Of a DNA stretch of 64,000 nucleotides, positions 5,157 through 55,771 are shown piece after piece. Position 1 is the first letter of the stretch, and the number at the start of each line of letters is the position of its first letter. The DNA comes from Candidatus Nomurabacteria bacterium RIFCSPHIGHO2_01_FULL_37_25 (GTDB taxonomy: Bacteria; Patescibacteriota; Minisyncoccia; Phycocordibacterales; UBA9973), in the NCBI GenBank assembly GCA_001786765.1, contig MFTH01000008.1, positions 2,939-66,938 on the forward strand, read 5' to 3'. The notes under the pieces were generated by a model. That model had not been told where the DNA came from and ran no database searches. It saw nothing but the letters and a program-made list of their open reading frames with translations. A program made the translations under genes and the position numbers.

Positions 5157-6323
5157 ATGAATGAAATAAAAAAATTAGATGAAAAATTACAACCTAAAAT
5201 TGACGCTGGTGAAGCTAGTAATTTTATCAAAGCTCAAGAACTAACTAAAGATGATTACTTCAGGGGTGTCGCAAGAAAATACGAGCAGACTAGACCTATA
5301 AAAGATAGTATCGTTCGTCTTGACCAAGAAGCTAAAATTGTAGAGACACTTCGCGCAGATAAACCTGTACTAATTCGAGGAAATTGGCGTATGGGAAAAA
5401 CTAGCATGATGGAATCTTTACAAACACATCAATTTGGTTTGAAAAATTCTATTGTTGCTGATGTAATGATGGAAAATCCATACAGCGCTAAATCTCTTAA
5501 AAATTTTCAAAAACAATTTGGATTGAATGCCGTTGTTGAATTTATAGCAAAAAGAGAATTTAAGAAAAAGGATGAACTTAGAAAGCAAATAACAAAAAGT
5601 CGAAAATTTCCCTTCGAATTTCTTAATGACTATCTTATTGAGCATGGAGAAAAAGTATTTTTGTCTCTAGATGAGGTTATATTTTTTGCGGAGGAACTGG
5701 AAAAACTGAAATACCTCGCTAATCTAAAAAGTTTAAGTAATATACAGATTACCCTTGTGTTGCATAGAGTTGCTTATTATGAAAGTTCATTTAAGGAGAT
5801 TTTTGAAGAATATGAGACACATTTTGTGCGGGCACTAACTTTAGAAGAAGTCGAAACATTAGTACGAAAACCTCTTGAGGGAACACGGATAACTTTTACC
5901 GATGACGCTATTCAGAGAATTTTTGAATTTACAGGTGGTAGACCAATGGAAATTAACAATGTCTGTTGGGCTTTAATGGGCTCATCTGAACATAAAAATT
6001 ATAAATTTACTTATTCCGCGGAAGATATAGACGCATTAACTAGAAAAGAAACTTGGGAACTAGGAGAACCATTTAGGATAGCTATTGTTAATTATAAAAA
6101 CATTTATACTTCCTCTATGAACAACGAGGAACAAGCGATAATTGATAAATTGATTGAAAAAGGTGAAGTTCCTGTTTCAGAAATTGAAGCGGTAAAAGTA
6201 CAACCATTGATTGATACGACTTTCGTTACTAGAGATTTCGCTAAGGGAGCTTATCGTATAAATGGCGAACTATTTAAGCGGGTGGTTTTGGATAAAAATC
6301 TTTGGCCGCGAATTACTTATTAG
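5157..6323 (+). CDS. stand-alone P-loop ATPase (archaeal-ATPase/AAA-like, GNWRMGKTS Walker A)
   Basis: 388 aa; Walker A GxxxxGKT/S; size and architecture like Arch_ATPase/DUF234 proteins. Confidence 0.45.
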   Translation: MNEIKKLDEKLQPKIDAGEASNFIKAQELTKDDYFRGVARKYEQTRPIKDSIVRLDQEAKIVETLRADKPVLIRGNWRMGKTSMMESLQTHQFGLKNSIVADVMMENPYSAKSLKNFQKQFGLNAVVEFIAKREFKKKDELRKQITKSRKFPFEFLNDYLIEHGEKVFLSLDEVIFFAEELEKLKYLANLKSLSNIQITLVLHRVAYYESSFKEIFEEYETHFVRALTLEEVETLVRKPLEGTRITFTDDAIQRIFEFTGGRPMEINNVCWALMGSSEHKNYKFTYSAEDIDALTRKETWELGEPFRIAIVNYKNIYTSSMNNEEQAIIDKLIEKGEVPVSEIEAVKVQPLIDTTFVTRDFAKGAYRINGELFKRVVLDKNLWPRITY

Positions 6324-16342: not shown

Positions 16343-16876
16343 TTAGAATTTCTCGTACACAGAAAATGTATAATCAAAAAGATTTTTTTCATCCGCTTTG
16401 TGTTCTGTGTGTGAAATTTCATTCCAAACCATTGGAATAATTTCTGGGAAAAAACTGTCAGCTTCTTTATCTTCTGCGTCAATGTGTGTTATATAAAGTT
16501 TATCAGCTATTTCCATAGATTGTTTATACAATTCTCCTCCTCCGATTATAAAAATTTCCTCATTTTTATCAGGAAATAAATCAAACGCTTCAGAGAGGGA
16601 ATGAACAATTTCAACTCCTGCATGCGTAGTCAGGTTTTTTTGTTTATAATTTGCGTCTCGAGTGATTATTATATTTCTTCGATTTGGCAGTGGTTTCCCC
16701 ATAGGCTCGCCCGTAGGGCTACGCCCGAGGGATTCAAAAGTTTTTCTTCCCATAATAACTGCGTGCAGTTCTGTAATATTTCTAAAATGTTTCATATCAG
16801 CAGGCATATGCCAAAGCAAAGAGTTGTTTTTCCCCAGTTCGTTATTTTTACCGATAGCGGCGATGAGTGAAATCAT
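16343..16876 (-). CDS. folA: dihydrofolate reductase
   Basis: MISLIAAIGKNNELGKNNSLLWHMPADMKHF...IMGRKTFESLG DHFR signature. Confidence 0.85.
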   Translation of the reverse strand: MISLIAAIGKNNELGKNNSLLWHMPADMKHFRNITELHAVIMGRKTFESLGRSPTGEPMGKPLPNRRNIIITRDANYKQKNLTTHAGVEIVHSLSEAFDLFPDKNEEIFIIGGGELYKQSMEIADKLYITHIDAEDKEADSFFPEIIPMVWNEISHTEHKADEKNLFDYTFSVYEKF

Positions 16877-16879
16877 TAT

Positions 16880-17713
16880 TTATTTTACAATATTTAATCC
16901 AGTAATTGGTTCTCCGGGTTTATAGTATGGTTCAAATGCTTTATAGATTTCATCTACCAAATTTTCATCTTTTTTTTCTGCCCGATCAAATATATCATCA
17001 GGAAAGATTGGAAAGATATTTGCATGATTATTTGTTCTCGTTATCAATTCTTTTGCTCCCTCATAATGAATGTCATAAATATGCGCGTTGGAAATTGTAT
17101 GTGTGTATATTCCAGGCTTCACTTTTAATTTTTGAGCCAAGGTGCACAATAATAAAACAAAACCAAAAGTATCAAATGGACAACCCAGCATCATATCATT
17201 AGACCTTATAATATTGTGCAAGTTGAGACGCCCTCCGATAATATTTACAGTGAAAGCGAAAAGACAAGGCACATTTTTCTTTGGAGTTCCTCCATGTCCA
17301 TCGTCATTTGGGTCCCAGGTGATGATCACTCCATGCCTTGAGCTAGGATCTTTTTGTAATAATTCTACTAAACTAGTTAGTTGGTCTCTTTTAAAATGAT
17401 GTTTCCAGCGATACCCATAAGCTGAAGTTATAGTGCCATCAGGTTCAATGAATTCATCCCACATTTTAGTATATTTTCTCAAAAATTCTGTATTTTTTTC
17501 TCCAGAAATAAACCAAATTTGTTCGGCGATTGGGGATTTGATGGGATTCTTTCTCAGTGTTAATACTGGGAAACCATCTTTTTCTAAATCAATTTGAAAA
17601 GTAATTCCAGGCAAGGCCTTTGTTTTATGCCCTGTGCGCTCGTTTAATTCTTCAATGCCTTCCTCCATTATTTTTTTTAGAATGTTTTGGTAGATTGTGT
17701 CGAAGGTGGTCAT
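16880..17713 (-). CDS. thyA: thymidylate synthase (divergent ThyA)
   Basis: RSNDMMLGCPFDTFGF motif and catalytic Cys (VPCLFAF); sits directly upstream of folA. Confidence 0.75.
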   Translation of the reverse strand: MTTFDTIYQNILKKIMEEGIEELNERTGHKTKALPGITFQIDLEKDGFPVLTLRKNPIKSPIAEQIWFISGEKNTEFLRKYTKMWDEFIEPDGTITSAYGYRWKHHFKRDQLTSLVELLQKDPSSRHGVIITWDPNDDGHGGTPKKNVPCLFAFTVNIIGGRLNLHNIIRSNDMMLGCPFDTFGFVLLLCTLAQKLKVKPGIYTHTISNAHIYDIHYEGAKELITRTNNHANIFPIFPDDIFDRAEKKDENLVDEIYKAFEPYYKPGEPITGLNIVK

Positions 17714-17727
17714 ATAGTAGAGTATAT

Positions 17728-18237
17728 ATGAATAAAAGTATTATGGAAAGTGATCAAAATAAAATCAAATATCCATATTTACCAAAAGGCAGGACTATTT
17801 TATATGTGCCGGAGGATAATAAATATATGTTTTTTGCAAAAGAAATTACCCTTACGCAATCAACTGATAAAAAGATTTCCACGGGAGCTGTGATTGTAGA
17901 TGAAGATGGAAAAATTTTAGTTAGTGCGGCCAATCAATCTGCGCTCAAAAATCAATATCTTTTAGATACCCATAAAAATTGGTGCATCAGAAAACTTTTT
18001 AAAATTCCATCGGGTCAAAAATATTGGCTATGTCCCGGTTGCGCATCGCACAAGAATCACGGAGAATATCAAGCAGTAATGGCTTTGGAGAAAAAGTTCC
18101 CACAGAAAATTAATTCCACTTTAGATTTATATTTATGGGGACATTGGTGGTGTTGCAAGCCTTGTTGGGATAAAATGATAGAAGTTGGAATTAAGAATGT
18201 ATACCTTATGGAAGGTATTGATAAACTTTTTAAATAA
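17728..18237 (+). CDS. dCMP/CMP deaminase zinc-binding family protein
   Basis: H-G-E and PCxxC zinc-binding motifs; start moved to MNKSIM to avoid overlap with thyA. Confidence 0.55.
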   Translation: MNKSIMESDQNKIKYPYLPKGRTILYVPEDNKYMFFAKEITLTQSTDKKISTGAVIVDEDGKILVSAANQSALKNQYLLDTHKNWCIRKLFKIPSGQKYWLCPGCASHKNHGEYQAVMALEKKFPQKINSTLDLYLWGHWWCCKPCWDKMIEVGIKNVYLMEGIDKLFK

Positions 18238-18239
18238 AA

Positions 18240-19043
18240 ATGATGATAGAAAATAAAGATCTAAAAATTTTAGTCAAAGCTGCTCATGCTGGCGGGAAAG
18301 TTCTGAAAAAATATTTTGGACAGGTCTTAAATCTAAAAGAAAAATCAACTTTGGCGGACTTTCAAACTGAGGCTGATATTGAGTCAGAAGAAGCAATTTT
18401 AAAAATTATAAAAAAAGAATTATCCCCATACAATATTCAATCCGAGGAAGAAGGCAAAATTCACAACGGATCTTATTATACAGTTGTGATTGATCCCATG
18501 GATGGCACGAATAATTTTGTAACAGGTATTCCAAATTTTACTGTTTCAATTGGTTTATTGCATAAAGGTCAGGCTGTTTTGGGTGTTATTTACCAGCCAA
18601 TACTTGATCAAACTTTTACTGCAGAGAAAGACAAGGGCGCATATCTAAACGGAAAGAAAATAACAGTTAATGATGTAAAAGATTCTAAAAGAAGCACTGT
18701 TACTTATATTTGTGGGTACAAAACCGATAGAGTCTACCTCGGTAGTGTAATGAATTCGTTGCTGGTTGGAGGTCATAAAAGAATTCTCTATAATTGGTCG
18801 GGAGCTTATGATTATTGTTTGCTTGCTTTGGGTAAAGTGGAGTCAGTTATCACCGACGGCATAGAACTTCACGATTATGCAGCCGGCAAGCTTATAGCAG
18901 CTGAAGCAGGAGGTAAGATTATTGATTTTGGTGGAAAAAAAGAAATTGATTATACTAACGATAAATTTATTATCAGCAATACTGATCAAGTTAACCAATA
19001 TATTTTAAATATAATTAAACCCTTGCAAACATTGACAAAATAG
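18240..19043 (+). CDS. inositol monophosphatase family protein (SuhB-like)
   Basis: DPMDGTNNF metal-binding motif. Confidence 0.75.
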   Translation: MMIENKDLKILVKAAHAGGKVLKKYFGQVLNLKEKSTLADFQTEADIESEEAILKIIKKELSPYNIQSEEEGKIHNGSYYTVVIDPMDGTNNFVTGIPNFTVSIGLLHKGQAVLGVIYQPILDQTFTAEKDKGAYLNGKKITVNDVKDSKRSTVTYICGYKTDRVYLGSVMNSLLVGGHKRILYNWSGAYDYCLLALGKVESVITDGIELHDYAAGKLIAAEAGGKIIDFGGKKEIDYTNDKFIISNTDQVNQYILNIIKPLQTLTK

Positions 19044-27522: not shown

Positions 27523-28716
27523 ATGGCAGAAGAATTTAAAAGAGACAGGCCACATATAAATGTCGGCACTATTGGTCACGTTGACCACGGCAAGACTACT
27601 TTGACCGCCGCAATTTTACATGTGCTAAACATGGCTGGAAAGTCAGTGCGACTTCGAGGTGTTGACCAGATCGACAATGCTCCCGAAGAAAAAGCTCGTG
27701 GAATTACTATTAATATTTCTCACAACGAATATTCAACGGATGCTCGTCATTATGCTCATATCGACGCTCCGGGACACGCTGATTATATTAAAAATATGAT
27801 TACAGGAGCGGCGCAAATGGATGGCGCTATTTTGGTGGTTGCGGCGACTGATGGCGCTATGCCTCAGACTCGTGAGCACGTTCTCCTTGCAAAGCAAGTT
27901 GGTGTGCCAAAAATAATCGTATTTTTAAACAAGTGCGATATGGTTGATGATAAAGAAATGATTGACTTGGTTGAAGAAGAAATTCGTGAACTTTTGACCA
28001 AGCAAGGATTTGATGGCGCAGGGGCTCCAGTTATTCGCGGTTCTGGACTCAAGGCTCTTGAATCAAAATCAGCTGATGACGAATGGGCGAAAAAAGTGCT
28101 TGAACTCGTAAACGCTCTTGATACTTATATTCCAATTCCGGTACGAGATATTGCAAAACCTTTTCTTATGCCTGTTGAAGACATATTTTCAATTGAAGGT
28201 CGTGGCACAGTTGTGACCGGAAAAATTGAAAGAGGTGTAATCAAGCTAGATGAGGATGTAGAGATTGTCGGTATTAAACCTACCCAAAAATCAACAGTTA
28301 CAGGTATTGAAATGTTTAATAAGAATCTAAAAGAGGGTATGGCTGGAGACAATGCCGGTATCCTTCTTCGTGGTCTAAAGAAAGAAGATATTACTCGCGG
28401 ACAAGTTCTCTGTAAGCCAGGCACAACTACCCCACATGATAATTTTACTGCTGAAATATATGTTTTGAAAAAAGAAGAAGGCGGACGTCACACCCCATTC
28501 TTTAAAGGCTATAAACCTCAATTTTATATTCGAACAACGGATGTTACGGGTGATGTGACTCTCGCAGAAGGCGCTGAAATGGTTATGCCTGGAGATACAG
28601 TAAAAATTACAGTTAAGTTAGTTACTCCAGTTGCGCTAGAAGAATCCCAAAGATTTGCTATTCGTGAAGGAGGCAAGACTGTAGGAGCTGGAGTAGTTAT
28701 AAAAATTTTAGGTTAG
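27523..28716 (+). CDS. tuf: elongation factor Tu
   Basis: [15 protein letters not shown]-equivalent, NKCD motifs; start at MAEEFKR. Confidence 0.95.
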
Positions 28717-28748
28717 AATATATTAATTTTGTTCATTAAAAATTAATC

Positions 28749-29213
28749 ATGGCAATAACAGAAAAAAAAGTTTCCGCCAAAGGCGGATCCGTCTCAGGCG
28801 GAAAAAATAAGAAAGAGCCTAAAGCAATTAAAGTTGCAAAAGCGCCTAAGGTTTCAAAAATTTCTCCGCAAAAGCAGAAATCTGTTCGCGCTGATACAAA
28901 AGATGCCAAAGTCATACTGCGTATTCGAGTCCGCGCTTACGAGAGTAAAATCTTGGATGCCTCAGTTAAACAAATCATAGATACGGCGGTTCGTTATGAT
29001 GCGGTGATAGTCGGACCTGTGCCTTTACCCACTGAAATAAAAAAATATACAGTCAATCGCTCTCCTTTTATTTATAAAAACACACGAGAGCAATTTGAAA
29101 TTCGTGTTCATAAAAGGTTGATTGATATCATAAACCCAAATACAAAGACTATTGAGGCTCTTACCAATTTGTCGCTTCCTTCCGGAGTAGATATTGACGT
29201 TAAAATGCTATGA
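28749..29213 (+). CDS. rpsJ: 30S ribosomal protein S10 with ~50-aa Lys/Ala-rich N-terminal extension
   Basis: C-terminal 100 aa match S10 (ILRIRVRAYESKILD...). Confidence 0.85.
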   Translation: MAITEKKVSAKGGSVSGGKNKKEPKAIKVAKAPKVSKISPQKQKSVRADTKDAKVILRIRVRAYESKILDASVKQIIDTAVRYDAVIVGPVPLPTEIKKYTVNRSPFIYKNTREQFEIRVHKRLIDIINPNTKTIEALTNLSLPSGVDIDVKML

Positions 29214-29333
29214 TCCCGTTAGAAGCCGCGATCGCAATTTAAAATATAAACAAAATATGAGATCAGATATTAGTAAAATTAATAACATAAAATGCGAGAT
29301 ATCCGAGTTGTTCGCGATCTGCTTCTAAACGGG
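29213..29333. mobile_element. palindromic MITE-like element E1 (type A), TIR TCCCGTTAGAAGC.../...GCTTCTAACGGGA, flanked by ATGA duplication
   Basis: ~22-bp terminal inverted repeat; ATGA at both flanks; downstream ATGA is the rplC start codon. Confidence 0.75.
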
Positions 29334-29942
29334 ATGAAATTCATTTTAGCAACAAAAGAAAATATGACGGAGTATTTTTCTGAAGAGGGTGTGGTTATCC
29401 CAGTAACGATACTTTCTGCCGGACCCGTGACGGTGACTAGAATTTTTGAAAAATCCAAAGATGGTTATAACTCTGTCCAAGTGGGTTTGGAAAAAAAGTC
29501 CCGACGCCCGAAGGGGTCGGGAGCCCGACCGCAAGCGTCGGGAAAAAATATCCTAAAAGAATTTAGATTAAAATCCGCCGACAAGATAGATGCAAAAAAG
29601 GGCGACAATATTGATGTTTCGGTTTTTGTTCCGGGTGATAAACTCCAAGTCTCCAGCGTATCTAAAGGCAAAGGCTTTCAGGGTGTCGTAAAGCGTCATG
29701 GTTTTAGTGGCGGTCCGCGCACTCATGGTCAAAAACATTCTGAAAGAGAGCCGGGAAGTATCGGAGGAGGACTCCGCACTCATGTTCCAAAGGGAATGAG
29801 AATGGCTGGCAGAATGGGCGGAGATCGCATTACCCAAAAGAATATCAAAGTTGTTTCTGTTGATAAAGAAAATAATATAATGCTGGTAAAAGGAGCAATC
29901 GCCGGCAAACGCGGGACTTTAGTTGAAATAATCAGCAGGTAA
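29333..29942 (+). CDS. rplC: 50S ribosomal protein L3
   Basis: L3 signature; the listed ORF start at 29292 lies inside element E1, so start set at MKFILATK. Confidence 0.9.
29503..29546. repeat. tandem GC-rich double hairpin (CCCGAC-N-GTCGGGA x2) inserted in frame in rplC
   Basis: gtcccgacgcccgaaggggtcgggagcccgaccgcaagcgtcggga; same element at 38072-38115. Confidence 0.7.
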
Positions 29943-29946
29943 TGAA

Positions 29947-30065
29947 CCCCGTTAGAAGTCGCGATCACGATTATGGCGATAATAAAGATATGAAAAAAGA
30001 TAACACAATACAAAAAAATAAAGAAAACTCTGAAAGTGTTGTATCGCGACCTACTTCTAACGGGG
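29947..30065. mobile_element. palindromic element E2 (diverged type A) between rplC and rplD
   Basis: ccccgttagaagtcgcgatcacg ... cgcgacctacttctaacgggg inverted repeat; 3' arm abuts a GTG start. Confidence 0.65.
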
Positions 30066-30727
30066 TGGAAGCAAAAATATACAATCAAAAAGGAGCTGAA
30101 ACCGGGACGATAAGTCTTCCAGAGAAAGTTTTTGCCGTCAAGTGGAAGAGTGACTTAGTGCATCAAGTTGTGCAAAGTATGAGAAGTAATAAAAGAGCAG
30201 GGACTGCCGACACCAAAGACCGTGGAGAAGTTCGTGGTGGAGGTAAAAAACCTTGGAAGCAAAAAGGTACAGGACGCGCAAGACATGGTTCAAGCCGAAG
30301 CCCTATCTGGGTTGGTGGAGGGGTAACGCACGGTCCGCTTGCTAAAAAAAATTATAAAAGAAAAATTTCAAAGAAAATGCGCGCGCAAGCTCTTTTCTCT
30401 GTTCTTTCAAAGAAGCTTAAGGATGAAGAAATTCTTTTTGTGGACACACTTTCTATGTCTTCTATCAAAACAAAAGATGCGGTAAAAGTAGTAGAGAATT
30501 TAGCGAAAGTTACTGATTGGAAAATGAAAGATTCTTCCCTGAAGCCTCGAGTGTTGACTGCGCTTTTTGGACGCAATGAAAAAACAGAAAAAAGTTTTAG
30601 AAATATTCCAGCATTAGAATTAGTATTTTTGAAGAATTTAAATCCATTTGATGTTTTAAATTATAAATATCTTTTAATAGAAAATCCGGTCGAAAGTATA
30701 AAATTTTTAGAATCTCGAGGTCAGTAA
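30065..30727 (+). CDS. rplD: 50S ribosomal protein L4 (GTG start)
   Basis: VEAKIYNQKG... matches L4 N-terminus; upstream part of the listed ORF is element E2. Confidence 0.8.
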   Translation: MEAKIYNQKGAETGTISLPEKVFAVKWKSDLVHQVVQSMRSNKRAGTADTKDRGEVRGGGKKPWKQKGTGRARHGSSRSPIWVGGGVTHGPLAKKNYKRKISKKMRAQALFSVLSKKLKDEEILFVDTLSMSSIKTKDAVKVVENLAKVTDWKMKDSSLKPRVLTALFGRNEKTEKSFRNIPALELVFLKNLNPFDVLNYKYLLIENPVESIKFLESRGQ

Positions 30728-30733
30728 AACAAC

Positions 30734-31012
30734 ATGACAATGATAATTAAAAATCCAAGAATTACCGAGAAAGCGTCTTTTGCGCAAGAGCAAAATGTTT
30801 ATACTTTTGATATTTCTTCCGGAGCTAGCAAAACCAACAAGACTGAGATAAAGAAAGCTATCTTTGCTCTTTACAAAGTAAAGCCTTTGAAAGTAAATGT
30901 TTTACCTGTGCCAAAGAAAAATATTATGTTTAAAGGGCGCGCTGGAGTAAAAGGCGGAGGCAGGAAAGCTTTAGTTTATTTAAAAGCGGGAGATAAAATT
31001 GAATTTATTTGA
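30734..31012 (+). CDS. rplW: 50S ribosomal protein L23
   Basis: L23 signature. Confidence 0.85.
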   Translation: MTMIIKNPRITEKASFAQEQNVYTFDISSGASKTNKTEIKKAIFALYKVKPLKVNVLPVPKKNIMFKGRAGVKGGGRKALVYLKAGDKIEFI

Positions 31013-31092
31013 CACTGAGGCATGACACTGAGGTACTTAGGTCTTGCCTCAGTGAAACAGTGAAAAGAAACACAATAAAACAATAAACAATT

Positions 31093-31932
31093 ATGAAAAC
31101 ATATAAACCAACAAGTAAATCACGAAGACAAATGACCCATGTGCTTTACAGGGAACTTTTGACGAAGTCACAACCGACCAAGTCTCTCACTTATGGTTTT
31201 AGACGTTCTGTCGGGAGGAATAGCAGAGGACGCATCACTGTGCGACATAAAGGTGGAGGACACAAACGTCTTTATCGCGAGGTTGATTTTTTATATAATA
31301 AAAAAGAAATTCCGGCTATAATAAAATCTATCGAATATGACCCAAATCGTTCAGCTTTTATTGGGCTAGCTATTTATAAAGACGGAGAAAAGAGATATGT
31401 TATATTGCCTAAATCTATAAAGCCCGGAGACTCTTTTATTGTTTCGGAAAAGGCGCCTCTCTCAGTCGCTAATAGACTTCCTCTTAAAAATATCCCAGTC
31501 GGGACTTTTGTTTATAATATTGAAATACAACCAAATGGTGGAGCGAAGATAGGTCGTTCCGCAGGAATTTTTGCGCAAGTAGTTGCTAATGCTGATGGAT
31601 ATACAAACATTAAAATGCCTTCAACTGAAGTCCGTAAAATAAATGAAAACTGCTTCGCGTGTATCGGTACTGTTTCAAACGAAGAACATCATCTTGAAAA
31701 TTATGGTAAAGCTGGACGAAGTCGCTGGAAGGGAATACGACCGACAGTGCGTGGAACTGCGATGAACCCTGTTGACCATCCGTACGGAGGTGGAGAAGGC
31801 AGACAAGGACGCGGAACAAAACGTCCAAAGACTATGTGGGGCAAAGTAACCGGCGGAAGAAAAACCCGCAGTCCAAAGAGATACTCAAATGTCTTTATTG
31901 TTTCTCGTCGTAAGACTGGGAAGAATAAATAA
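31093..31932 (+). CDS. rplB: 50S ribosomal protein L2
   Basis: L2 signature (GRNSRGRITVRHKGGGHK...). Confidence 0.95.
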   Translation: MKTYKPTSKSRRQMTHVLYRELLTKSQPTKSLTYGFRRSVGRNSRGRITVRHKGGGHKRLYREVDFLYNKKEIPAIIKSIEYDPNRSAFIGLAIYKDGEKRYVILPKSIKPGDSFIVSEKAPLSVANRLPLKNIPVGTFVYNIEIQPNGGAKIGRSAGIFAQVVANADGYTNIKMPSTEVRKINENCFACIGTVSNEEHHLENYGKAGRSRWKGIRPTVRGTAMNPVDHPYGGGEGRQGRGTKRPKTMWGKVTGGRKTRSPKRYSNVFIVSRRKTGKNK

Positions 31933-31970
31933 ATTTAAAATTTGTATCCTTTTTTGCGCTGTGGTATAAT

Positions 31971-32270
31971 TTGAATCTTATGAAAAAATTAACACTCAAA
32001 GAAATAAATTTACCAGTTACAATATTTAAAGAAGGCAAGAGTTATGTGGCGTATAGCCCTGCTCTTGATCTTTCTACTTGCGCTTCCACTTACAAAAAAG
32101 CGCAAACTAATTTTTCCGAGATTGTTGGAATTTTTATTGAAGAACTTGTAGAAATGGGCACACTGGATGTAGTGCTCCGAGAATTAGGCTGGCAGAAAAT
32201 AAAATCTAACTGGCAACCGCCAGTTGTTGTTTCAAATTATTTTCAACCGATGAATCTTTCGTATGCCTAA
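31971..32270 (+). CDS. hicB: HicB-family antitoxin
   Basis: 99 aa; PVTIFKEGKSYVAYSPALDLSTCAST HicB N-domain pattern; overlaps next ORF. Confidence 0.5.
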   Translation: MNLMKKLTLKEINLPVTIFKEGKSYVAYSPALDLSTCASTYKKAQTNFSEIVGIFIEELVEMGTLDVVLRELGWQKIKSNWQPPVVVSNYFQPMNLSYA

Positions 32271-32493
32271 GAAGCAAAATGTAACGAATAGGCAGTTTCA
32301 ACAATTTTTAATATATGTCGGTTGTTCTTTTAAAAGATCTAAAGGAGATCATTTTGTATATGCGCGTTCCGATTTAATACGCCCTATTATAGTTCCTAAA
32401 GATAATCCTCTACCTCAATTTATTATAAGAAATAATCTTAAATTGCTTGGAATGTCTTGGGAAGAATTTTTCAATATAATTGATAGAATATAA
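32263..32493 (+). CDS. hicA: HicA-family toxin
   Basis: 76 aa; GDHFVY...IIVPKDNPLPQFIIRNNLKLLGMSWEEF matches the HicA/YcfA core. Confidence 0.55.
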   Translation: MPKKQNVTNRQFQQFLIYVGCSFKRSKGDHFVYARSDLIRPIIVPKDNPLPQFIIRNNLKLLGMSWEEFFNIIDRI

Positions 32494-32498
32494 ATTAA

Positions 32499-32568
32499 AC
32501 CCGCAGTCCAAAGAGATACTCAAATGTCTTTATTGTTTCTCGTCGTAAGACTGGGAAGAATAAATAAG
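32499..32568 (+). repeat. 70-bp direct duplicate of the rplB 3' end (identical to 31863-31932)
   Basis: aacccgcagtccaaagagatactcaaatgtctttattgtttctcgtcgtaagactgggaagaataaataa present twice, bracketing the hicBA pair. Confidence 0.85.
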
Positions 32569-32609
32569 ACCTCACCTAAACCAAAAATTGTTTTTCCACA
32601 TTTTGCTGT

Positions 32610-32890
32610 TGCATTATTTCAAATATAATGTTAAAAAAACAAGCAGAAAGGGGGTGATGGTGTGGCAGTGATGCAAGTAAAAAGAACTCTTGCTAGAGCA
32701 AGGAAGAAAAAGGACCGCTTCTACTGGCATAAGAAGCGGCAGGCAACACGCTTAAGGAAAAGGAGGGTGAAAAGATGATACTGTTGTGGGGCTCTCTATT
32801 AAGGGGCCCCACTGTTGTTTTTACTCAAATATTTGACATTTTACTCTTATTTGCTACTATAAAACCAAGCTCGATTCGAGCTTTTTGTTT
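32610..32890 (+). ncRNA. candidate structured GC-rich RNA ending in a terminator hairpin
   Basis: no ORF; local GC well above genome average; several perfect hairpins (CCGCTTCT/AGAAGCGG, GGGGCCCC); AAGCTCGATTCGAGCTTTTT terminator at about 32866-32890. Confidence 0.2.
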
Positions 32891-32903
32891 ATATAAATTA
32901 TGA

Positions 32904-33024
32904 TCCCGTTAGAGATTATTCGGTTAAAATTTAACGGTTTATATAATGTATATACTAAAGTGAAATTATTAGTTTTAATAAGAAGACACAACGGAAATCT
33001 AAAGATTTCCTATCTCTAACGGGA
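32904..33024. mobile_element. palindromic element E3 (type B) upstream of rpsS
   Basis: TCCCGTTAGAGAT ... ACGGAAATCTAAAGATTTCCTATCTCTAACGGGA; ATGA on both flanks. Confidence 0.75.
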
Positions 33025-33377
33025 TGACAAGATCAATCAAAAAAGGCGTATATGTGGATGAAAGGCTTTTAAAAAAGATTGCCGGCAAAAATCCTCTTAA
33101 TACAGGAACCATAAAAACATGGAAGAGAGCTTGTGTTATATCTCCCGATATGCTCGGTTTTACTTTTGGTGTTTATAATGGCAAGGTTCATGTGGATGTC
33201 TTTGTTACTGAAGACATGGTGGGGCACAGATTGGGAGAATTTTCTCCAACAAAGAAATTTACAAAACACGGCGGAAAGATGCAGAAAGAACTCGAACAAA
33301 AGAAAATGGAAGCTGAAATAAATGCCGCCAAAGGGGCGACTGCGGCCGCGGCTGACGCCAAGGGCAGTAAAAAGTAG
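33024..33377 (+). CDS. rpsS: 30S ribosomal protein S19 (Lys/Ala-rich C-terminal extension)
   Basis: S19 core motif. Confidence 0.9.
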
Positions 33378-33383
33378 GAATGA

Positions 33384-33504
33384 ATCCCGTTAGAAGCCAC
33401 GATCGCAATTTGAAAAGAAACAAAAATATGAAATCAAGCATTATAAAAATTAATAATATAAAATATCAGACATGCGAGTTGATCGCGATCTGCTTCTAAC
33501 GGGA
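33384..33504. mobile_element. palindromic element E4 (type A) between rpsS and rplV
   Basis: ~85% identical to E1; flanked by ATGAA/ATGAA. Confidence 0.75.
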
Positions 33505-33896
33505 TGAAAGCATTTTTAAAAAATTACAGACAGGCTCCGAGGAAAGTTCGCTTGGTTGCGAGTCTCTTAAAGGGCAAGAGTGTTGTGGAAGCCCTAGCCG
33601 AGCTTGATTTTTTAGCCAAACGCGCAGGACTGCCTATAAAAAAGCTTTTAATTTCCGCAGTTTCCAATGCAAAATCTATGGGAATTCAAACAGATAATTT
33701 ATTTATAAAAGAATTGCGAGTAGATAAAGGCATAACAATGAAAAGAATGATGCCGGCGGCTATGGGCACAGGACACAGGATAAATAAACGCACGAGCCAT
33801 TTGAATTTGTTGCTCGCAGAAAAAGTTTTAGCAGTTAAAAATTCTCCAAAAAGGACAGTCCTTAAGAGAGTTTCCCCAAGGACCGTCCTTAAGTAA
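33504..33896 (+). CDS. rplV: 50S ribosomal protein L22
   Basis: L22 signature. Confidence 0.9.
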   Translation: MKAFLKNYRQAPRKVRLVASLLKGKSVVEALAELDFLAKRAGLPIKKLLISAVSNAKSMGIQTDNLFIKELRVDKGITMKRMMPAAMGTGHRINKRTSHLNLLLAEKVLAVKNSPKRTVLKRVSPRTVLK

Positions 33897-33900
33897 TAAC

Positions 33901-34614
33901 ATGTCAAAAATAGTTCATCCATACGCCCATAGATTAGTAATACTTCGAGACTGGAAAAGTCGCTGGTTTGCTGATTCGAAAAAATACGTTTCTTATTTAA
34001 AAGGGGACGTCCTTATACGTCAATATTTAGAAAAGAAATTGCGTGGCATGTATATTTCTTCAATTGAAATTGAAAGAAGCCGAAAAGCGACTAGGTTTAT
34101 AATCAAAACTTCTCGACCCGGTCTTATCATAGGCAGGAATGGCGAAGGAGCAACAAAATTAAAAGAAGATATTTTGAAAAAAATGGATAAATTGAAACTT
34201 CCAAAGCCGGAAGATTTCAAACTTGAAATTATTGAAGTAACAAATCCAGAAGCCGATGCCGCGATTGTGGCATATATGATTGCCGAAGGGTTAGAGAAAA
34301 GATTGCCATATCGTCGTGTTATTAAAACAATTATTGAAAAAGTTATGGCGGCGCGCGGAGTAGAAGGAGCGAGAGTGGTTCTCTCAGGCAGGTTGGGAGG
34401 AGCTGACATTGCTCGCACAGAAGAGCTCAAACGCGGGTCTATTCCGCTTCAGAGTTTCCGCGCTGATATTGATTTCAAGCGCGAGCGCGCCACTTTGTCT
34501 TATGGTGTTGTCGGCATAAAGGTTTGGATTTATCGCGGTAAAATTTTTGCCGACAAGAATATGAAAAATACAAAAAAGAACGAAATATTAGAAAATAAAA
34601 CAAAGTCTGATTAA
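33901..34614 (+). CDS. rpsC: 30S ribosomal protein S3
   Basis: KH plus S3-C domains. Confidence 0.9.
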   Translation: MSKIVHPYAHRLVILRDWKSRWFADSKKYVSYLKGDVLIRQYLEKKLRGMYISSIEIERSRKATRFIIKTSRPGLIIGRNGEGATKLKEDILKKMDKLKLPKPEDFKLEIIEVTNPEADAAIVAYMIAEGLEKRLPYRRVIKTIIEKVMAARGVEGARVVLSGRLGGADIARTEELKRGSIPLQSFRADIDFKRERATLSYGVVGIKVWIYRGKIFADKNMKNTKKNEILENKTKSD

Positions 34615-34618
34615 TTTT

Positions 34619-35047
34619 ATGTTAGTACCTAAAAAAGTAAAATTTAGAAAATGGCAGACTATGCGTAGTAATCCTAAAAAGACTTCGCCCGACACTCGCG
34701 GGACAAAACTTTCTTTTGGCTCTTATGGTCTAAAATCAGAAAGTCAAACACGCATCAAGTCGACCCAGATTGAAGCTGCCCGAAAGGTAATAGCCCGAAC
34801 ACTTACTAAAGCCGGTAAGTATTGGATTCGTATTTTCCCAGATCGTCCTTATACTTCTAAAGCCGCAGAGATGGGTATGGGAAAAGGTAAAGGGGATCCG
34901 CAAGGATATTGTTTTGATGTTTTTCCCGGACGCATCATTTTTGAAGTGGATGGAGTAAATGAAAAAATCGCCAAGGAGGCGCTTAGAAAGGCTGGTAGTA
35001 AATTGCCAATCTCTGTTAGAATTATGTCCAGAACGCATAAGCAGTAG
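34619..35047 (+). CDS. rplP: 50S ribosomal protein L16
   Basis: L16 signature. Confidence 0.9.
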   Translation: MLVPKKVKFRKWQTMRSNPKKTSPDTRGTKLSFGSYGLKSESQTRIKSTQIEAARKVIARTLTKAGKYWIRIFPDRPYTSKAAEMGMGKGKGDPQGYCFDVFPGRIIFEVDGVNEKIAKEALRKAGSKLPISVRIMSRTHKQ

Positions 35048-35062
35048 GTTGCGAAAAAATAT

Positions 35063-35263
35063 ATGAAAAATAAAAAAGAAAACTTGAAAGATATGAAAAA
35101 AGACGAACTCAACAAAAAGCTCGCTGTTTTACGAGAAAATGCAAGAGTTATAAGGTTTAAGTCTGAAGGTTCAAAATCAAAAAATGTGAAAGAACTTTCA
35201 GTTTTAAGGAAAAACATAGCTCGGATTTTAACGGAAATCAACCGTCAAAAAGTTATGAAGTAA
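35063..35263 (+). CDS. rpmC: 50S ribosomal protein L29
   Basis: size and position. Confidence 0.8.
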
Positions 35264-35277
35264 TTTTTATAAAAAAA

Positions 35278-35535
35278 ATGACAACAAAAATAGAAAGAAA
35301 AAATAAAAAAGGAAAAGGTAGCATCTTAAACGGGGTGGTGGTTTCAGACAAAATGGAAAAGACTGTTGTTGTAACTGTATCCAGATTTATCAAGCATCCC
35401 TTGTATGGTAAATATTATAAAGTGAGCAAAAAATACAAAGCGCATGACGAGGAAAATAAATATAAAGTGGGAGATAATATAGAGATAGTTGAGACAAAAC
35501 CAATTTCAAAAGACAAACATTTTGCCGTAATTTAA
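35278..35535 (+). CDS. rpsQ: 30S ribosomal protein S17
   Basis: S17 motif. Confidence 0.85.
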
Positions 35536-35665
35536 CGAACGAAGTGAGTATAAATTACGAGCATCCCGCCCCACTTTTAACATTAACATTTATTATCAAA
35601 TAAAAATTTTACAAACAATGAATTTTAAGTTAGTATCAAATTAATTATTAAAAGTGGAGCGGGAT
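35531..35665. mobile_element. palindromic element E5 (type C; arms CATCCCGCCCCACTTTTAA / TTAAAAGTGGAGCGGGATG)
   Basis: ~135-bp repeat, ~85% identical to E6, directly after the rpsQ stop. Confidence 0.7.
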
Positions 35666-35706
35666 GACGATTTTTATAGTCATTTCATTCCTTAAAAATC
35701 AGTCAT

Positions 35707-36078
35707 ATGATTCAAGCAGGCACATGGGTAAAAATAACAGATAACGCCGGAGGCACTGTAGGCAAAGTGTTCAAGATTTTAGGGTCTTCTAAAAAAAGAT
35801 ATGCTTCTTTGGGTGAACAAGTGATTATTGCCGTAAAGGTGGCAAGTCCCAGAAAGGGAGTTAAAAAGAAAGATGTGCATCAGGCGGTCATTGTGCGTAC
35901 CAGAGCTGCCTTTAGGAGAAAGGATGGATCTTATATTCGTTTTGATGATAATGCTGTGGTTCTTATAGAAAAAGGAAAGCTTGATCCAAAGGCTGGGCGT
36001 ATTTTCGGGCCAATTCCGAGAGAGCTCGCCGAGAAGGGATTTCAGAAAATTATTTCTTTAGCGCAGGAGGTCCTGTAA
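35707..36078 (+). CDS. rplN: 50S ribosomal protein L14
   Basis: MIQ...L14 signature. Confidence 0.9.
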   Translation: MIQAGTWVKITDNAGGTVGKVFKILGSSKKRYASLGEQVIIAVKVASPRKGVKKKDVHQAVIVRTRAAFRRKDGSYIRFDDNAVVLIEKGKLDPKAGRIFGPIPRELAEKGFQKIISLAQEVL

Positions 36079-36083
36079 ATTAA

Positions 36084-36215
36084 TGAACGGAGTGAATATA
36101 ATTTACAAGGATCCCGCCTCACTTTTAACACTAACATTCATAGATCAATTAAAATTTTACAAGCAATGAACTTTAAGTTATTATAAAAATTAAGTATTAA
36201 AAGTGGGGCGGGATG
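36084..36215. mobile_element. palindromic element E6 (type C) between rplN and rplX
   Basis: paralogue of E5. Confidence 0.7.
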
Positions 36216-36250
36216 CTCAAATTTGAAATTCGCTTCGCTCATAACAAATT

Positions 36251-36469
36251 ATGACAAAAATCAAAAAAGGAGACAATGTAACAATAATAACCGGCAAAGA
36301 TAAAGGTAAAAAAGGAAAAATCGTCCGTGTTTTGGTGAGTGAAAATAAAGTCATTATTGAAGGAGCGAATATGATGAAAAAACATCAGCGTCCGAGAAAG
36401 TCTGGTGAAAAAGGAAGTATAAAAAATATTGAGATGCCAATACATGCTTCCAATGTTAAGAAATTATAA
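36251..36469 (+). CDS. rplX: 50S ribosomal protein L24 (short KOW form)
   Basis: KKGDNVTIITGKDKGKKGKI KOW motif. Confidence 0.85.
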   Translation: MTKIKKGDNVTIITGKDKGKKGKIVRVLVSENKVIIEGANMMKKHQRPRKSGEKGSIKNIEMPIHASNVKKL

Positions 36470-36490
36470 ATAGAGTAAGAAGGGATGAAA

Positions 36491-36611
36491 TCCCGTTAGA
36501 GATCCTTCAGTTAAAATAATCAATAGAGTAAAAATATTATGATAAGTTTAAATAAATTATTAATAGTTATAAAAAGAACGGAAATCTAAAGATTTCCTAT
36601 CTCTAACGGGA
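36491..36611. mobile_element. palindromic element E7 (type B) between rplX and rplE
   Basis: same TIRs as E3/E8; flanked by ATGAAA/ATGAAA. Confidence 0.75.
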
Positions 36612-37186
36612 TGAAACATTTAATTATAAAAGAAAAAGAGAAAGAAGTGTTTGAAAAAATGAAAGAAATTTTTCGTTTCAAAAATACTTTTGCCTCTCCA
36701 AAAATGCAAAAGATTGTGTTAAATGTCGGCACGGGGACAGCTATAAAAAAAGATAAGAATAAAAATGACGAAATATCTCTTCGTCTAGCGAAAATTACTG
36801 GGCAAAAGCCGGTTACTAGGGGTGCTAAGCATTCAATCGCATCTTTCAAAACCAGAGCGGGTGACCCAATAGGAATTGTTGTAACACTGCGAGGAAAAAG
36901 GATGTATGCTTTTTTAGAAAAACTTATCAATGTCGCTTTGCCTCGCACGAAAGACTTTCGCGGTATCGCTCGTACGGGAGTAGATAATATAGGCAATCTC
37001 ACTATCGGTATAAAGGAGCACACTATTTTCCCAGAAACAGCTGATGAGGACATTCGGGATATCTTTGGTATGTCTATTACTTTGGTTTCTTCCGCAAAAA
37101 ATAAAAAAGAAGGCACAGCTTTCTTTGAGCTTTTAGGCGTGCCTTTGAAGAAAGAAGAGTCTGTTCGCAAGATTAAGCAAGGATAA
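36611..37186 (+). CDS. rplE: 50S ribosomal protein L5
   Basis: L5 signature. Confidence 0.9.
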   Translation: MKHLIIKEKEKEVFEKMKEIFRFKNTFASPKMQKIVLNVGTGTAIKKDKNKNDEISLRLAKITGQKPVTRGAKHSIASFKTRAGDPIGIVVTLRGKRMYAFLEKLINVALPRTKDFRGIARTGVDNIGNLTIGIKEHTIFPETADEDIRDIFGMSITLVSSAKNKKEGTAFFELLGVPLKKEESVRKIKQG

Positions 37187-37246
37187 GGGCAAGCAAGGAT
37201 AATCCTTGATATTTTAATTCTTGATATTTTTTACTGAAAAATTTAT

Positions 37247-37275
37247 TTGACTATTTTTGTTTCTTTTGATAGTAT
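37247..37275 (+). promoter_or_regulatory. internal promoter-like TTGACT-N17-TAGTAT between rplE and rpsZ
   Basis: consensus hexamers with 17-nt spacer inside a 267-nt AT-rich spacer; TAGCTA palindrome arrays follow. Confidence 0.35.
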
Positions 37276-37453
37276 GAAAGAGTCTAGGATATAGATTGAT
37301 CTGTGTTTCTCCTTAAGGTCTAACAGTTTTTTCTGGGATTTTAAGAAAAAATACACGATATCGTCTAGTATCTGGATAGCTAATTAGCTTATGCCTTATA
37401 GCTAATTAGGAAATTCAAAGCTAGAAAGCTAAGTAGCTAATAAGTTAATTCAT

Positions 37454-37639
37454 ATGACAAAAACATCAGTCAAAGCTAGAGCCTTAAAGACACAGAAGTT
37501 TAGCACTCGGCAAAAAAACCGATGTTTTCGTTGTGGTCGAGGTAACGCTTTCATGAGAGATTTCGGTCTATGTCGTATTTGTTTTAGAGAATTGGCAAAC
37601 GAAGGAATGTTGCCGGGTGTTCGTAAATCAAGTTGGTAG
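37454..37639 (+). CDS. rpsZ: 30S ribosomal protein S14 type Z (zinc-binding)
   Basis: 61 aa with CxxC...CxxC. Confidence 0.85.
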
Positions 37640-37653
37640 TTCATAAAATCATT

Positions 37654-38070
37654 ATGGATTCAATTTCAAATATGATAATAATGTTAAAAAACGCAAGCTT
37701 GGCAGGCAAAGAGTCTGTATTCTTGCCATATTCTAAAATGAGAAATGCGATTGCGGAATGTTTAAAGAAAGAAGGATATGTTTCCAACATTTCCAAAAAA
37801 GTTTCTACTCGAGGCGGGTCCGTTTCAAACACAAAAAACAAACAGTCAATTCTCGAAGTAGGGTTAATGTACATTGACAAGAAGCCAAAAATTGTGGAAG
37901 TTGAGAGAATTTCTAAACAATCGAGGCGTGTTTATTTTAGAATAAAAGATATTCATACGGTTAAGAATGGTTCAGGATTACTCGTGCTTTCAACACCTAA
38001 GGGAATTTTGTCAGGTAGAGAAGCTCGCAAAGAGCAAGTCGGCGGTGAAGCATTGTTTAAAATTTGGTAG
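37654..38070 (+). CDS. rpsH: 30S ribosomal protein S8
   Basis: S8 signature; start at MDSISNM. Confidence 0.85.
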   Translation: MDSISNMIIMLKNASLAGKESVFLPYSKMRNAIAECLKKEGYVSNISKKVSTRGGSVSNTKNKQSILEVGLMYIDKKPKIVEVERISKQSRRVYFRIKDIHTVKNGSGLLVLSTPKGILSGREARKEQVGGEALFKIW

Positions 38071-38071
38071 C

Positions 38072-38115
38072 CCCGACGTAAAGTCGGGGTCCCGACCGAA
38101 AGCGTCGGGATTAAC
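38072..38115. repeat. tandem GC-rich double hairpin (second copy) between rpsH and rplF
   Basis: ccccgacgtaaagtcggggtcccgaccgaaagcgtcggga; second half near-identical to the rplC copy. Confidence 0.7.
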
Positions 38116-38132
38116 AAAAAATAAAAATTATA

Positions 38133-38677
38133 TGAGTAGAATAGGAAAACAAGAAATACAAATACCAAAAGGAGTTGAAGTCACAAAAAATGGTGACATT
38201 TTGAAAGTTGCAGGACCTAAAGGAACACTCGTTAAAACTTTTCGTGATGATATTATTTTCAATATAGGAGATAAAACAATTACATTGAATACAAAAAGAA
38301 ACGATAAATTTTCCAAATCTCTTTGGGGTACTTATGTTTCGCATATAAAAAATATGATTATTGGCGTAGAGACGCCATATCAAAAGAAATTAATATTAGA
38401 AGGCGTCGGATTCAAATCTGAAGTCAAATCCGAAGGAAAGAATAATTTTTTTAACTTTGCGTTAGGATTTTCTCATCCGGTCATTGTAAAAATCCCAGAC
38501 ACGATCACTGCTACGGCTGAAAAAAATAATATTACAATTACTGGGATTGATAAAGAATTGGTCGGAAGTTTTGCCGCGGCTATTCGCGCGCTGAAGAAGC
38601 CGGAACCTTACAAAGGCAAAGGAATGCGTTATGAAGGTGAAGTTATTAGACGTAAGCAGGGGAAAAAGACGGTGTAG
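38133..38677 (+). CDS. rplF: 50S ribosomal protein L6
   Basis: MSRIGKQEIQIPKGVEV L6 N-terminus; the listed ORF start at 37967 is a spurious upstream extension. Confidence 0.85.
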
Positions 38678-38714
38678 AATAGCTTATAGCTAACTAGCTA
38701 AAAAGCTTAAAATT

Positions 38715-55342: not shown

Positions 55343-55377
55343 TCTTGTGCTAGCACTGCGAAGCTTTAGCGAAGCAG

Positions 55378-55771
55378 TGGAGATGGGGGGAAATGAGCCC
55401 CCGTGCAGAAGGTTTTTGTCAAGAAGTCTACATACATAGCGCGTTTTTTGTTTTAAATTAAAAAATTCAGAAACGCGCGAAATATTTTTTAATCGAGCTT
55501 CTGTGTTTCGCCCCGACGGCGAAGCTGTGTCGGGACTATCCCGATAATATTATGCCTCTACTCATATATCGGAAGTCTATGAGAGAGACACGAGTTACGC
55601 GTAAGCGGAAACTCGAGCGAAAGCGAAGTCATTCATACTGAAGTATGGAGAGACTGCTTTCACCTTAGAAGCTAATTTTGCAATTAACATTTGAACGAAG
55701 TTTTACGAGATTACGTTCATGCTCGGTATGCGTCAATAACAAATGGCCTACTGTCTATGCCTTGCATCCCC
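55378..55771 (-). ncRNA. ssrA: tmRNA (ssrA), CCA not encoded
   Basis: minus strand: 5' GGGGATGCAAGGCATAGACAG pairs with 3' ...GGGGG-CTCATTT-CCCCCC-ATCTCCA, same acceptor pattern as B. subtilis tmRNA (GGGGACG/CGTCTCC); ~394 nt; next to smpB. Confidence 0.6.

Follow-up and report, generated by a model that had tools for sequence, protein, structure and literature searches.

What does a GC-rich double hairpin do in frame inside rplC, the gene for ribosomal protein L3, and what does a second one do in the spacer between rpsH (S8) and rplF (L6) of the same operon? The question is raised by a stretch of 64,000 nucleotides from Candidatus Nomurabacteria bacterium RIFCSPHIGHO2_01_FULL_37_25 (contig MFTH01000008.1), here called the window, which has a GC content of 0.32-0.41. 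Both double hairpins had been noticed in an earlier reading of the letters alone (the original prediction) and both exist, with their limits shifted by at most 5 nt: copy A occupies 29499-29543 (45 nt, plus strand) and copy B occupies 38071-38110 (40 nt, plus strand). We name the family to which they belong E1 and propose, with moderate confidence, that it is a non-autonomous mobile palindrome similar to REPs (repetitive extragenic palindromic sequences) and their inverted doublets (REPINs) and to the Rickettsia palindromic elements (RPEs).

Copy A reads T-CCCGAC-GCCCGAAGGG-GTCGGG-A G-CCCGAC-CGCAAGC-GTCGGG-A and folds into two abutting hairpins. The first (29499-29522, plus strand) has the outer arms T-CCCGAC and GTCGGG-A, a bulged G and the inner stem CCC-GAA-GGG, and the second (29523-29543, plus strand) is an inverted unit in which G-CCCGAC is followed by C-GCAA-G, a bulged C and GTCGGG-A. 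Copy B reads C-CCCGAC-GTAAA-GTCGGG-G T-CCCGAC-CGAAAGC-GTCGGG-A. The second hairpins of the two copies are nearly identical, as had been claimed, and differ at 2 of 21 positions. The pattern CCCGAC-N(2-14)-GTCGGG occurs five times in the window (two, two and one) against 0.00 times in 100 dinucleotide-preserving shuffles. Compared with shuffles, the RNA folds reach -29.9 kcal/mol for copy A (z -4.4) and -27.5 kcal/mol for copy B (z -5.0), and the predicted DNA folds (-17.6 and -15.7 kcal/mol, respectively) are also far stronger than those of shuffles. The minimum-energy fold of copy A is one long nested hairpin and not two tandem ones; because all four arms are the same palindromic word, the tandem and the nested folds are alternatives.

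The two copies are members of a dispersed repeat family, as had been suspected, and similar elements lie in frame in many housekeeping genes of related genomes. Species-representative genomes were scanned for the double-hairpin pattern with exact stems, and at least 120 loci were found in at least 90 assemblies, nearly all of them Parcubacteria/Paceibacteria, with elements of 34-47 nt; the copies were then studied in approximately 8 kb of DNA around each listed locus (L numbers below). Among the matches listed, the hosts comprise Nomura-, Kaiser-, Adler-, Zambryski-, Lipton-, Yanofsky-, Wolfe- and Doudnabacteria, Minisyncoccia and others, as well as one member of Gottesmanbacteria, and the contigs of these loci range from 32 to 60% in GC content. 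One metagenome-assembled genome (MAG) carries at least seven E1 loci. Matches in other phyla are few, each being a chance match that is GC-rich or belonging to a different repeat (L005, L025, L092), and 853 kb around the L3 genes of 80 relatives contained one degenerate double copy and two single hairpins only. Viral contigs gave one match, which was GC-rich and due to chance, and a phage origin of E1 was rejected on this ground. That the hairpins of the window represent a chance resemblance, GC-rich hairpins evolved locally in situ or an assembly artefact could be argued from their number there, which is just two, yet this reading, to which we assign a vanishingly small probability, is already refuted: none are expected in shuffles, an identical L3 protein (P0002) was found on 16 independent contigs and the loci of the scan repeat the same architecture.

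The E1 unit is an imperfect hairpin of 17-24 nt, consisting of N-CCCGAC, a bulged G, a variable inner stem with its loop, and GTCGGG-N', and in each copy hairpin 2 repeats hairpin 1 in inverse orientation, with two stem-extending bases at the joint. With hairpin 2 reverse-complemented, CCCGAC-G opens 221 of the 246 units, which makes the element a unit coupled to itself in inverse orientation. Two or more inner pairs are formed in 54 of the 64 long loops, against approximately 5 in shuffles, and the inner stems vary (CCC/GGG, CGC/GCG, CAC/GTG, CTC/GAG, ACC/GGT and others), while the loops are frequently GNRA-like or UUCG-like. Degenerate copies retain pairing by double changes, such as TCCGAC/GTCGGA, present in all four arms of one copy, and CCCGAT/ATCGGG. 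The structure of E1 is maintained, and either selection or the mode of copying could maintain it. No described RNA family accounts for it: in the window, only the transfer-messenger RNA (tmRNA) and the tRNAs reach the gathering scores of Rfam, and when 28700-38700 was scanned permissively, the family that overlapped copy A best was anti-hemB, whose 20 bits compare with a gathering score of 49.5. Full-text search of an incomplete literature collection found no description of the motif, or of elements of the REP type or with REP-associated tyrosine transposases (RAYTs), in the Candidate Phyla Radiation, and the E1 family is apparently undescribed.

The flanks of E1 are far from random. When 67 copies were oriented on their joint (GT), position -1 was C in 63, position -2 was G or A in 62, position -3 was A in 54 and position -4 was T in 39, and the base after the element was A in 66; a G at position -5 was found in 17. 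The resulting TAG or TAA lies one base away from the stem, and the intervening base is paired. Since only about 6 of 69 such triplets end real open reading frames (ORFs), the TAG/TAA is a sequence preference, and a stop-codon function of this flank was ruled out.

Copy B illustrates the insertion point. It stands directly 3' of the TAG stop codon (38068-38070) of rpsH (37633-38070, plus strand), which forms its left flank, and 21 nt before the ATG of rplF (38132-38677, plus strand). The same S8-L6 site is filled in L033, L091 and L147, in the last case after TAA and with one stem base altered, and L003 and L124-L128 lack an element there, with S8 tails that resemble that of the window as much as those of the filled loci do, or more. 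Comparison of filled sites (window, L033, L091, L147) with empty ones (L003, L126, L144) gives TGGTAG-element-TTCA versus TGGTAG-TTCA, with zero duplicated bases. Target-site duplication, a mark of miniature inverted-repeat transposable elements (MITEs), is thus absent from the filled and empty comparisons. In the S8 case, as in the tRNA cases described below, the TAG is native to the host sequence. Relatives at 72-87% identity are without the element at both sites of the window. An intrinsic terminator, in which a run of T comes after a GC-rich hairpin, would be another conceivable occupant of this spacer, and 37500-38700 contains 0 terminator-like sites, the element being followed by A-rich sequence. 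As a separate observation, the S8-L6 spacer of L124 carries, right after the S8 stop codon and at the same spot as copy B, an unrelated perfect 20-bp inverted repeat (GCAGATAGAGCCTTAGACTC TATC TAGAGTCTAAGGCTCTATCTGC).

Copy A is a more complicated case. The rplC gene (29334-29942, plus strand) encodes 202 residues from its annotated start, and its ORF also opens at 29292. The original prediction described an in-frame insertion into L3, and the reading frame does continue through the element, which encodes SRRPKGSGARPQASG; a net insertion, on the other hand, did not hold up, as the 15 codons occupy the place of the 16 canonical codons ERISKGSAGAMKGAFY of the orthologues. In an alignment with 17 relatives, the element-less L3 proteins read QKKERISKGSAGAMKGAFYKT and the L3 of the window reads EKKSRRPKGSGARPQASGKN, and in the rplC DNA 45 nt stand in place of 48 nt between two A-runs. 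The segment ERISKGSAGAMKGAFY is the counterpart of a conserved segment in solved L3 structures; aligned with these, the residues encoded by the element face this conserved segment, and the window protein is 5 residues shorter there. Orthologues having this segment with unrelated DNA would have spoken against the original prediction, and what they contain is a segment of the same length that is unrelated in both DNA and protein sequence, which goes half of the way. The rplC copy is a replacement, or an insertion plus a deletion, without net lengthening of L3. The core of the original prediction, a tiny repeat element that L3 tolerates, stands. An AlphaFold model of L3 based on an 18-sequence alignment had a mean predicted local distance difference test score of 40.8 and was too poor to place the element relative to the surface.

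The same place in L3 is occupied in a lineage that is not sister to that of the window (P0010; loci L001 and L002), where 39 of the 45 bases of the element are identical and only the loops and the joint differ (GAA to TTC, GCAAG to GGAAA). When the L3 genes of the window and L001 are compared, 14 of the 15 third codon positions within the element are identical, against 102 of 188 in the rest of the gene. With the element excluded, P0010 is the most distant from the window among the L3 proteins compared and clusters with an element-less protein in a weak tree of approximately 160 residues. A database variant, P0008, has 7 codons fewer, the two inner arms being gone, so that a single hairpin remains.

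Copies in coding regions are widespread and follow no particular gene or frame. They are read in any of the three frames and stand in either orientation, and ten hosts were checked by Pfam: SMC, EF-G, UvrA, leucyl aminopeptidase (PepA), class II aldolase, Pol III delta', an exonuclease, RNase HII, RpoA and MnmA. The peptides encoded are of the types SRRPxGSGxRPxxSG, APTxxVGVPTxxVG and PDAxxxSGPRPKRRG. In EF-G approximately 10 residues are added in a variable loop, in RpoA the copy is located in the linker between two domains, and for each of the aldolase, the exonuclease and a helicase, two genomes share the position of a copy. One copy (L060, 1692-1728) links two ORFs, one glycosyltransferase-like and one prepilin-like (GFTLIELLVV...), so that a single frame stays open across both, and read-through of E1 may create apparent gene fusions in MAG annotations.

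Strong hairpins in coding sequence, of which one replaces a conserved and seemingly necessary segment of L3, could suggest that the RNA loses the element by intron-like excision, or that translation passes over it by bypassing as in T4 gene 60 or the mitochondrial 'byps', giving an L3 without the 15 residues. Such a solution is highly improbable in our view. Among coding-like copies, defined by frames open for at least 60 codons on both sides, the length is divisible by three in 29 of 36 (81%), compared with 32 of 63 clearly non-coding copies, and no in-frame stop was found in the coding copies listed, though the common GTAAA loop yields TAA in one frame. Excision would, moreover, still leave L3 without its canonical segment.

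The list of coding hosts raises another possibility, as many of them (UvrA, SMC, Pol III delta', RNase HII, exonuclease, helicase) are genome-maintenance genes. The DNA uptake sequences (DUS) of Neisseria form inverted pairs and are biased towards genes of this kind, and CCCGAC/GTCGGG, present four times per element on each strand, might likewise be an uptake or recombination signal of competent Parcubacteria, spread by transformation and homologous recombination. Conservation of the sequence, beyond that of the structure, across lineages and an L3 patch common to non-sister lineages would fit this idea. Its probability is nonetheless slim: the density is low, with 2 double copies in 64 kb, the hexamers are rare in the window outside the hairpins and isolated ones are not enriched, and copies with altered stems retain the pairing and not the sequence. 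Uptake signals also arise via point changes and not as 40-nt blocks after TAG.

Copies also stand beside tRNA genes. At no fewer than 12 loci, involving eight tRNA specificities, the left flank is an exact copy of tRNA nucleotides 1-10, ending in TAG, and the right flank is a copy of the tRNA from nucleotide 11 to approximately 14-22, followed by an AT-rich spacer of 8-51 nt and then by the intact tRNA gene. Comparison of filled with empty sequence places the insertion exactly after TAG, again with no duplicated target. The start of the partial copy is tRNA nucleotide 1, to within one to three bases; what lies upstream of it resembles the spacer no more than shuffles do, and -10-like hexamers are, as judged by eye, better placed upstream of the partial copy than in the spacer. 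Flanks have decayed in some of the tRNA-linked copies (L066, L046). Among 63 element-free tRNA genes checked, all but one were without partial 5' copies. A tRNA-Thr gene in L097 (approximately 5969-6198) has two partial 5' copies upstream (a contiguous element-free one at a distance of 95 nt and an E1-bearing one at 115 nt). A second tandem double-hairpin family, here called E2, consists of [T/C]CCGCC-NNN-GGCGG[A/G] repeated twice, and in L102 (553-689) an E2 copy has the arrangement just described for E1, with another junction: tRNA-Arg nucleotides 1-12 precede E2, and nucleotides 13-21, a spacer of 12 nt and the complete tRNA (617-689) come after it.

Several explanations of the tRNA arrangement were tried and rejected. 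It is not a tRNA intron or a D-loop insertion: with the element removed at nine boundary offsets, ARAGORN predicted no junction-spanning tRNA, and the intact tRNA lies 8-64 nt downstream. Tandem duplication of a promoter together with the tRNA 5' end was dismissed on the comparison of the upstream sequence and the spacer given above. A fixed cleavage distance of 10 nt setting the copy boundary was ruled out, for the junction of E2 is at nucleotide 12 and the copy still starts at tRNA nucleotide 1. The 10+10-nt flanks matching tRNA also brought to mind the guide RNAs of TIGR-Tas (tandem interspaced guide RNA) systems. In arrays of that kind, which adjoin a gene with a Nop domain, two repeats of 8-12 nt alternate, and there are spacers of 9 nt and box C/D motifs; E1 is solitary, not arrayed, and is without such repeats. 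A known RNA family, a terminator and TIGR arrays are accordingly unlikely or excluded as explanations of E1. In our own reading, U8-A9-G10 followed by C-U-C-A would make every tRNA gene a target, and the arrangement would be the scar of a survived hit in which the 5' part of the gene was rebuilt. If the mature tRNA served as the template for rebuilding, a boundary at nucleotide 1 would be accounted for, which is speculative. A bolder version, which we regard as distinctly doubtful, would make E1 and E2 an active hairpin transposon superfamily of Parcubacteria, with a mobilising enzyme, homing to TAG^YTCA-like sites (the caret marks the insertion point); hits in single-copy tRNA genes (U8-A9-G10^C11-U12-C13-A14) would be survived via 5' rebuilding, possibly with the mature tRNA as template, leaving tRNA 1-10, the element, tRNA 11-20 and filler in that order.

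The REP/REPIN-like mobile reading is preferred because of the block-wise presence or absence of the element after TAG without duplication, the several copies per genome, the patchy spread, the unrelated genes occupied in every frame and the decaying tRNA-linked copies. Transposition of single strands by HUH/Y1 enzymes gives insertion 3' of a short word without duplication. In the proposed mechanism, a copy of E1 would be set down directly 3' of a TAG or TAA trinucleotide without duplication of the target, and the mobile form would most likely be single-stranded DNA folded into hairpins, on which an enzyme provided in trans acts. Copies would survive only where they are harmless, that is, in spacers, after stop codons, upstream of tRNA genes and, translated, in frame in variable loops and linkers. 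In rplC, the 15 read-through codons of the copy have taken over from the 16 codons of the conserved L3 segment. The sequences establish the family, its build, the preference for certain flanks, the lack of target duplication, translation in frame, the patchy filling of one site and the compensatory changes in the stems; mobility itself, the single-strand mechanism and the existence of a mobilising enzyme are inferred.

Several points weigh against this proposal. No movement event was observed directly. A tblastn search with approximate queries (IS200 TnpA and the RAYT of E. coli) found no transposase of the IS200/RAYT type in 1.8 Mb, including 0.9 Mb made up of approximately 8 kb per copy (best E of about 0.5). 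The multi-copy status is derived from the 64-kb window and the listed loci, the TAG could belong to the element rather than to the target, and the rplC case is no simple insertion. Furthermore, the sites in L3, the S8-L6 spacer, the aldolase, the exonuclease and the helicase are filled in distant genomes and the stems change only in compensating pairs, both of which are equally expected under selection for structure.

Such selection is the core of a serious rival, in which the host itself selects the double hairpin as a structural signal, for instance an element for mRNA processing or stability, a site for a Parcubacteria-specific protein or a DNA site; it would be retained at certain places, among them the S8-L6 spacer, its presence in coding sequence being tolerated or used. 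The stem sequence is kept across very divergent lineages with compensatory variants, the S8-L6 spacer is filled in four lineages and holds a different perfect 20-bp palindrome in L124, the element in L3 is far better conserved than synonymous sites there, and GNRA-like or UUCG-like loops are frequent, all of which favour it. We still hold it to be unlikely, because occupancy is patchy even in the close relatives in which both window sites are empty, the genes concerned are unrelated and are entered in all frames and both orientations, copies also stand in decaying tRNA fragments, and block-wise presence or absence exactly after TAG is the pattern of mobile DNA. A host-selected structure is a serious rival or an added layer, and a mobile origin and a secondary function are compatible.

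A third, looser hairpin had been reported inside ssrA. The single CCCGAC...GTCGGG hairpin at 55512-55534 (minus strand) does lie within the tmRNA gene (55375-55771, minus strand), where it aligns to a helix at positions approximately 203-236 of the tmRNA model RF00023. Its interpretation as an inserted element was not sustained: the tmRNA of L098, another member of Parcubacteria, has at that position a helix of the same size with a different sequence, and the ssrA hairpin is therefore not an insertion. The identity of its stem with that of E1 may be due to chance, or to a replacement like that in L3.

The surroundings of copies A and B contain other repeats and insertions. E2 is represented in the window by two in-frame copies of 30 nt, one at 28773-28802 in the N-terminal extension of rpsJ (SAKGGSVSGG) and the other at 60507-60536 in the linker of RecG (ORF 58737-61079, minus strand; SAKGGPASGG); the E2 pattern gave 3 matches against 0 in shuffles, and eight further copies were found among the loci studied (L018, L032, L081, L102 twice, L106 twice, L145). 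The last 71 bp of rplB (31862-31932) are exactly repeated 564 bp downstream at 32497-32567. The insert between the repeats (31933-32496) contains one ORF of 99 aa with no Pfam match (31971-32270) and one of 76 aa (32263-32493) that is HicA toxin-like (E = 3e-5; its 24.5 bits fall short of Pfam's cut-off, 27), and has the appearance of a toxin-antitoxin cassette that entered rplB at its end and duplicated the end of the gene; L003 has no such repeat. Within the operon for ribosomal proteins, MITE-like elements are located in the S17-L14 spacer (35562-35666, with terminal inverted repeats) and in the L24-L5 spacer (36490-36612, terminal inverted repeat ATCCCGTTAGAGAT), and a related copy precedes rpsS (approximately 32900-33023). 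DNA similar to them is also found in L047, L052 and L115. A long hairpin in the L14-L24 spacer (36087-36238) has weak Rfam matches resembling microRNA precursors. In the close relative L003, four extra genes are present in the operon for ribosomal proteins, between rplE and rpsN (16765-18477), two of them with N-terminal methylation (pilin-like) domains.

Genomes of the Candidate Phyla Radiation are usually called streamlined and repeat-poor, and here the most conserved operon bears several kinds of miniature palindromic elements, one of them read through in L3 in place of a segment possessed by all solved bacterial L3 structures. If E1 is mobile, its copies would be a natural record of loops of essential proteins tolerating 12-15 extra or replaced residues, a marker for tracing populations and lineages of uncultured bacteria, and a lead towards an enzyme recognising the 6-bp hairpin stem that is kept throughout a very deep radiation. 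Elements of this type would also explain odd 'insertions' and fused ORFs in the annotation of Parcubacteria MAGs, and the tRNA-linked copies point to an unexplained rescue route for tRNA genes.

How, then, does E1 compare with known systems? Double-hairpin elements and GC clusters of fungal mitochondria are adjacent GC-rich hairpins in an AT-rich compact genome and also enter coding and structural RNA genes; they are organellar and eukaryotic, whereas E1 is bacterial, and they are presumably unrelated to it in sequence. Members of IS200/IS605 have ends defined by hairpins and insert 3' of a short specific target without duplication. As in their ends and in their miniature derivatives, the palindrome-associated transposable elements (PATEs), hairpins stand at the ends of E1 next to a TAG^ or TAA^ flank, with no duplication; unlike them, E1 has no internal sequence between the hairpins, and no TnpA or TnpB was detected in the DNA searched. 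Inverted dimers of REPs, known as REPINs or bacterial interspersed mosaic elements (BIMEs), are thought to be mobilised by RAYTs, tyrosine (HUH/Y1) transposases whose genes commonly have REPs on their flanks. The RPEs measure 100-150 bp and also occur in coding regions (PMC1779305). E1 resembles them in being palindromic, in lying both between genes and in frame in conserved protein genes, in being translated and tolerated there, and in belonging to a reduced, AT-rich genome. It differs from these elements, which are limited to Rickettsiales, in its size of 34-47 nt, its two small hairpins, its unrelated sequence and its defined TAG^ insertion point.

REPs of the GTAG-tagged kind can provide TAG stops, pair up as inverted dimers and are also found within ORFs (PMC3733652). 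E1 shares with them and with REPINs a short, GC-rich, imperfect palindrome (20-40 bp in REPs) whose asymmetry gives it polarity, units in opposite orientation that can be folded into a larger hairpin, and a T-A-G tag at one end, which is sometimes the stop codon of the upstream gene. Both kinds of element lie mostly downstream of genes, with some inside ORFs, often those of replication or repair (PMC3733652). There are also differences. The units of E1 abut with a 2-nt joint, unlike those of REPINs, and the whole element has just 34-47 nt; its tag is TAG or TAA plus one pairing base, whereas GTAG REPs bear a conserved unpaired GTAG tetranucleotide at one end; a G stands at -5 in only those 17 of the 67 copies, and the far end is without CTAC. 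Partial 5' copies of tRNA flank some of the elements, no RAYT was found in the 1.8 Mb searched, and the stem hexamer is common to a whole class-level radiation, whereas REPs are species-specific. From the known palindromic repeat elements E1 differs in its very small size, its abutted forward and inverted units, a stem word held across a deep radiation, and its TAG^ placement with tRNA-linked scars.

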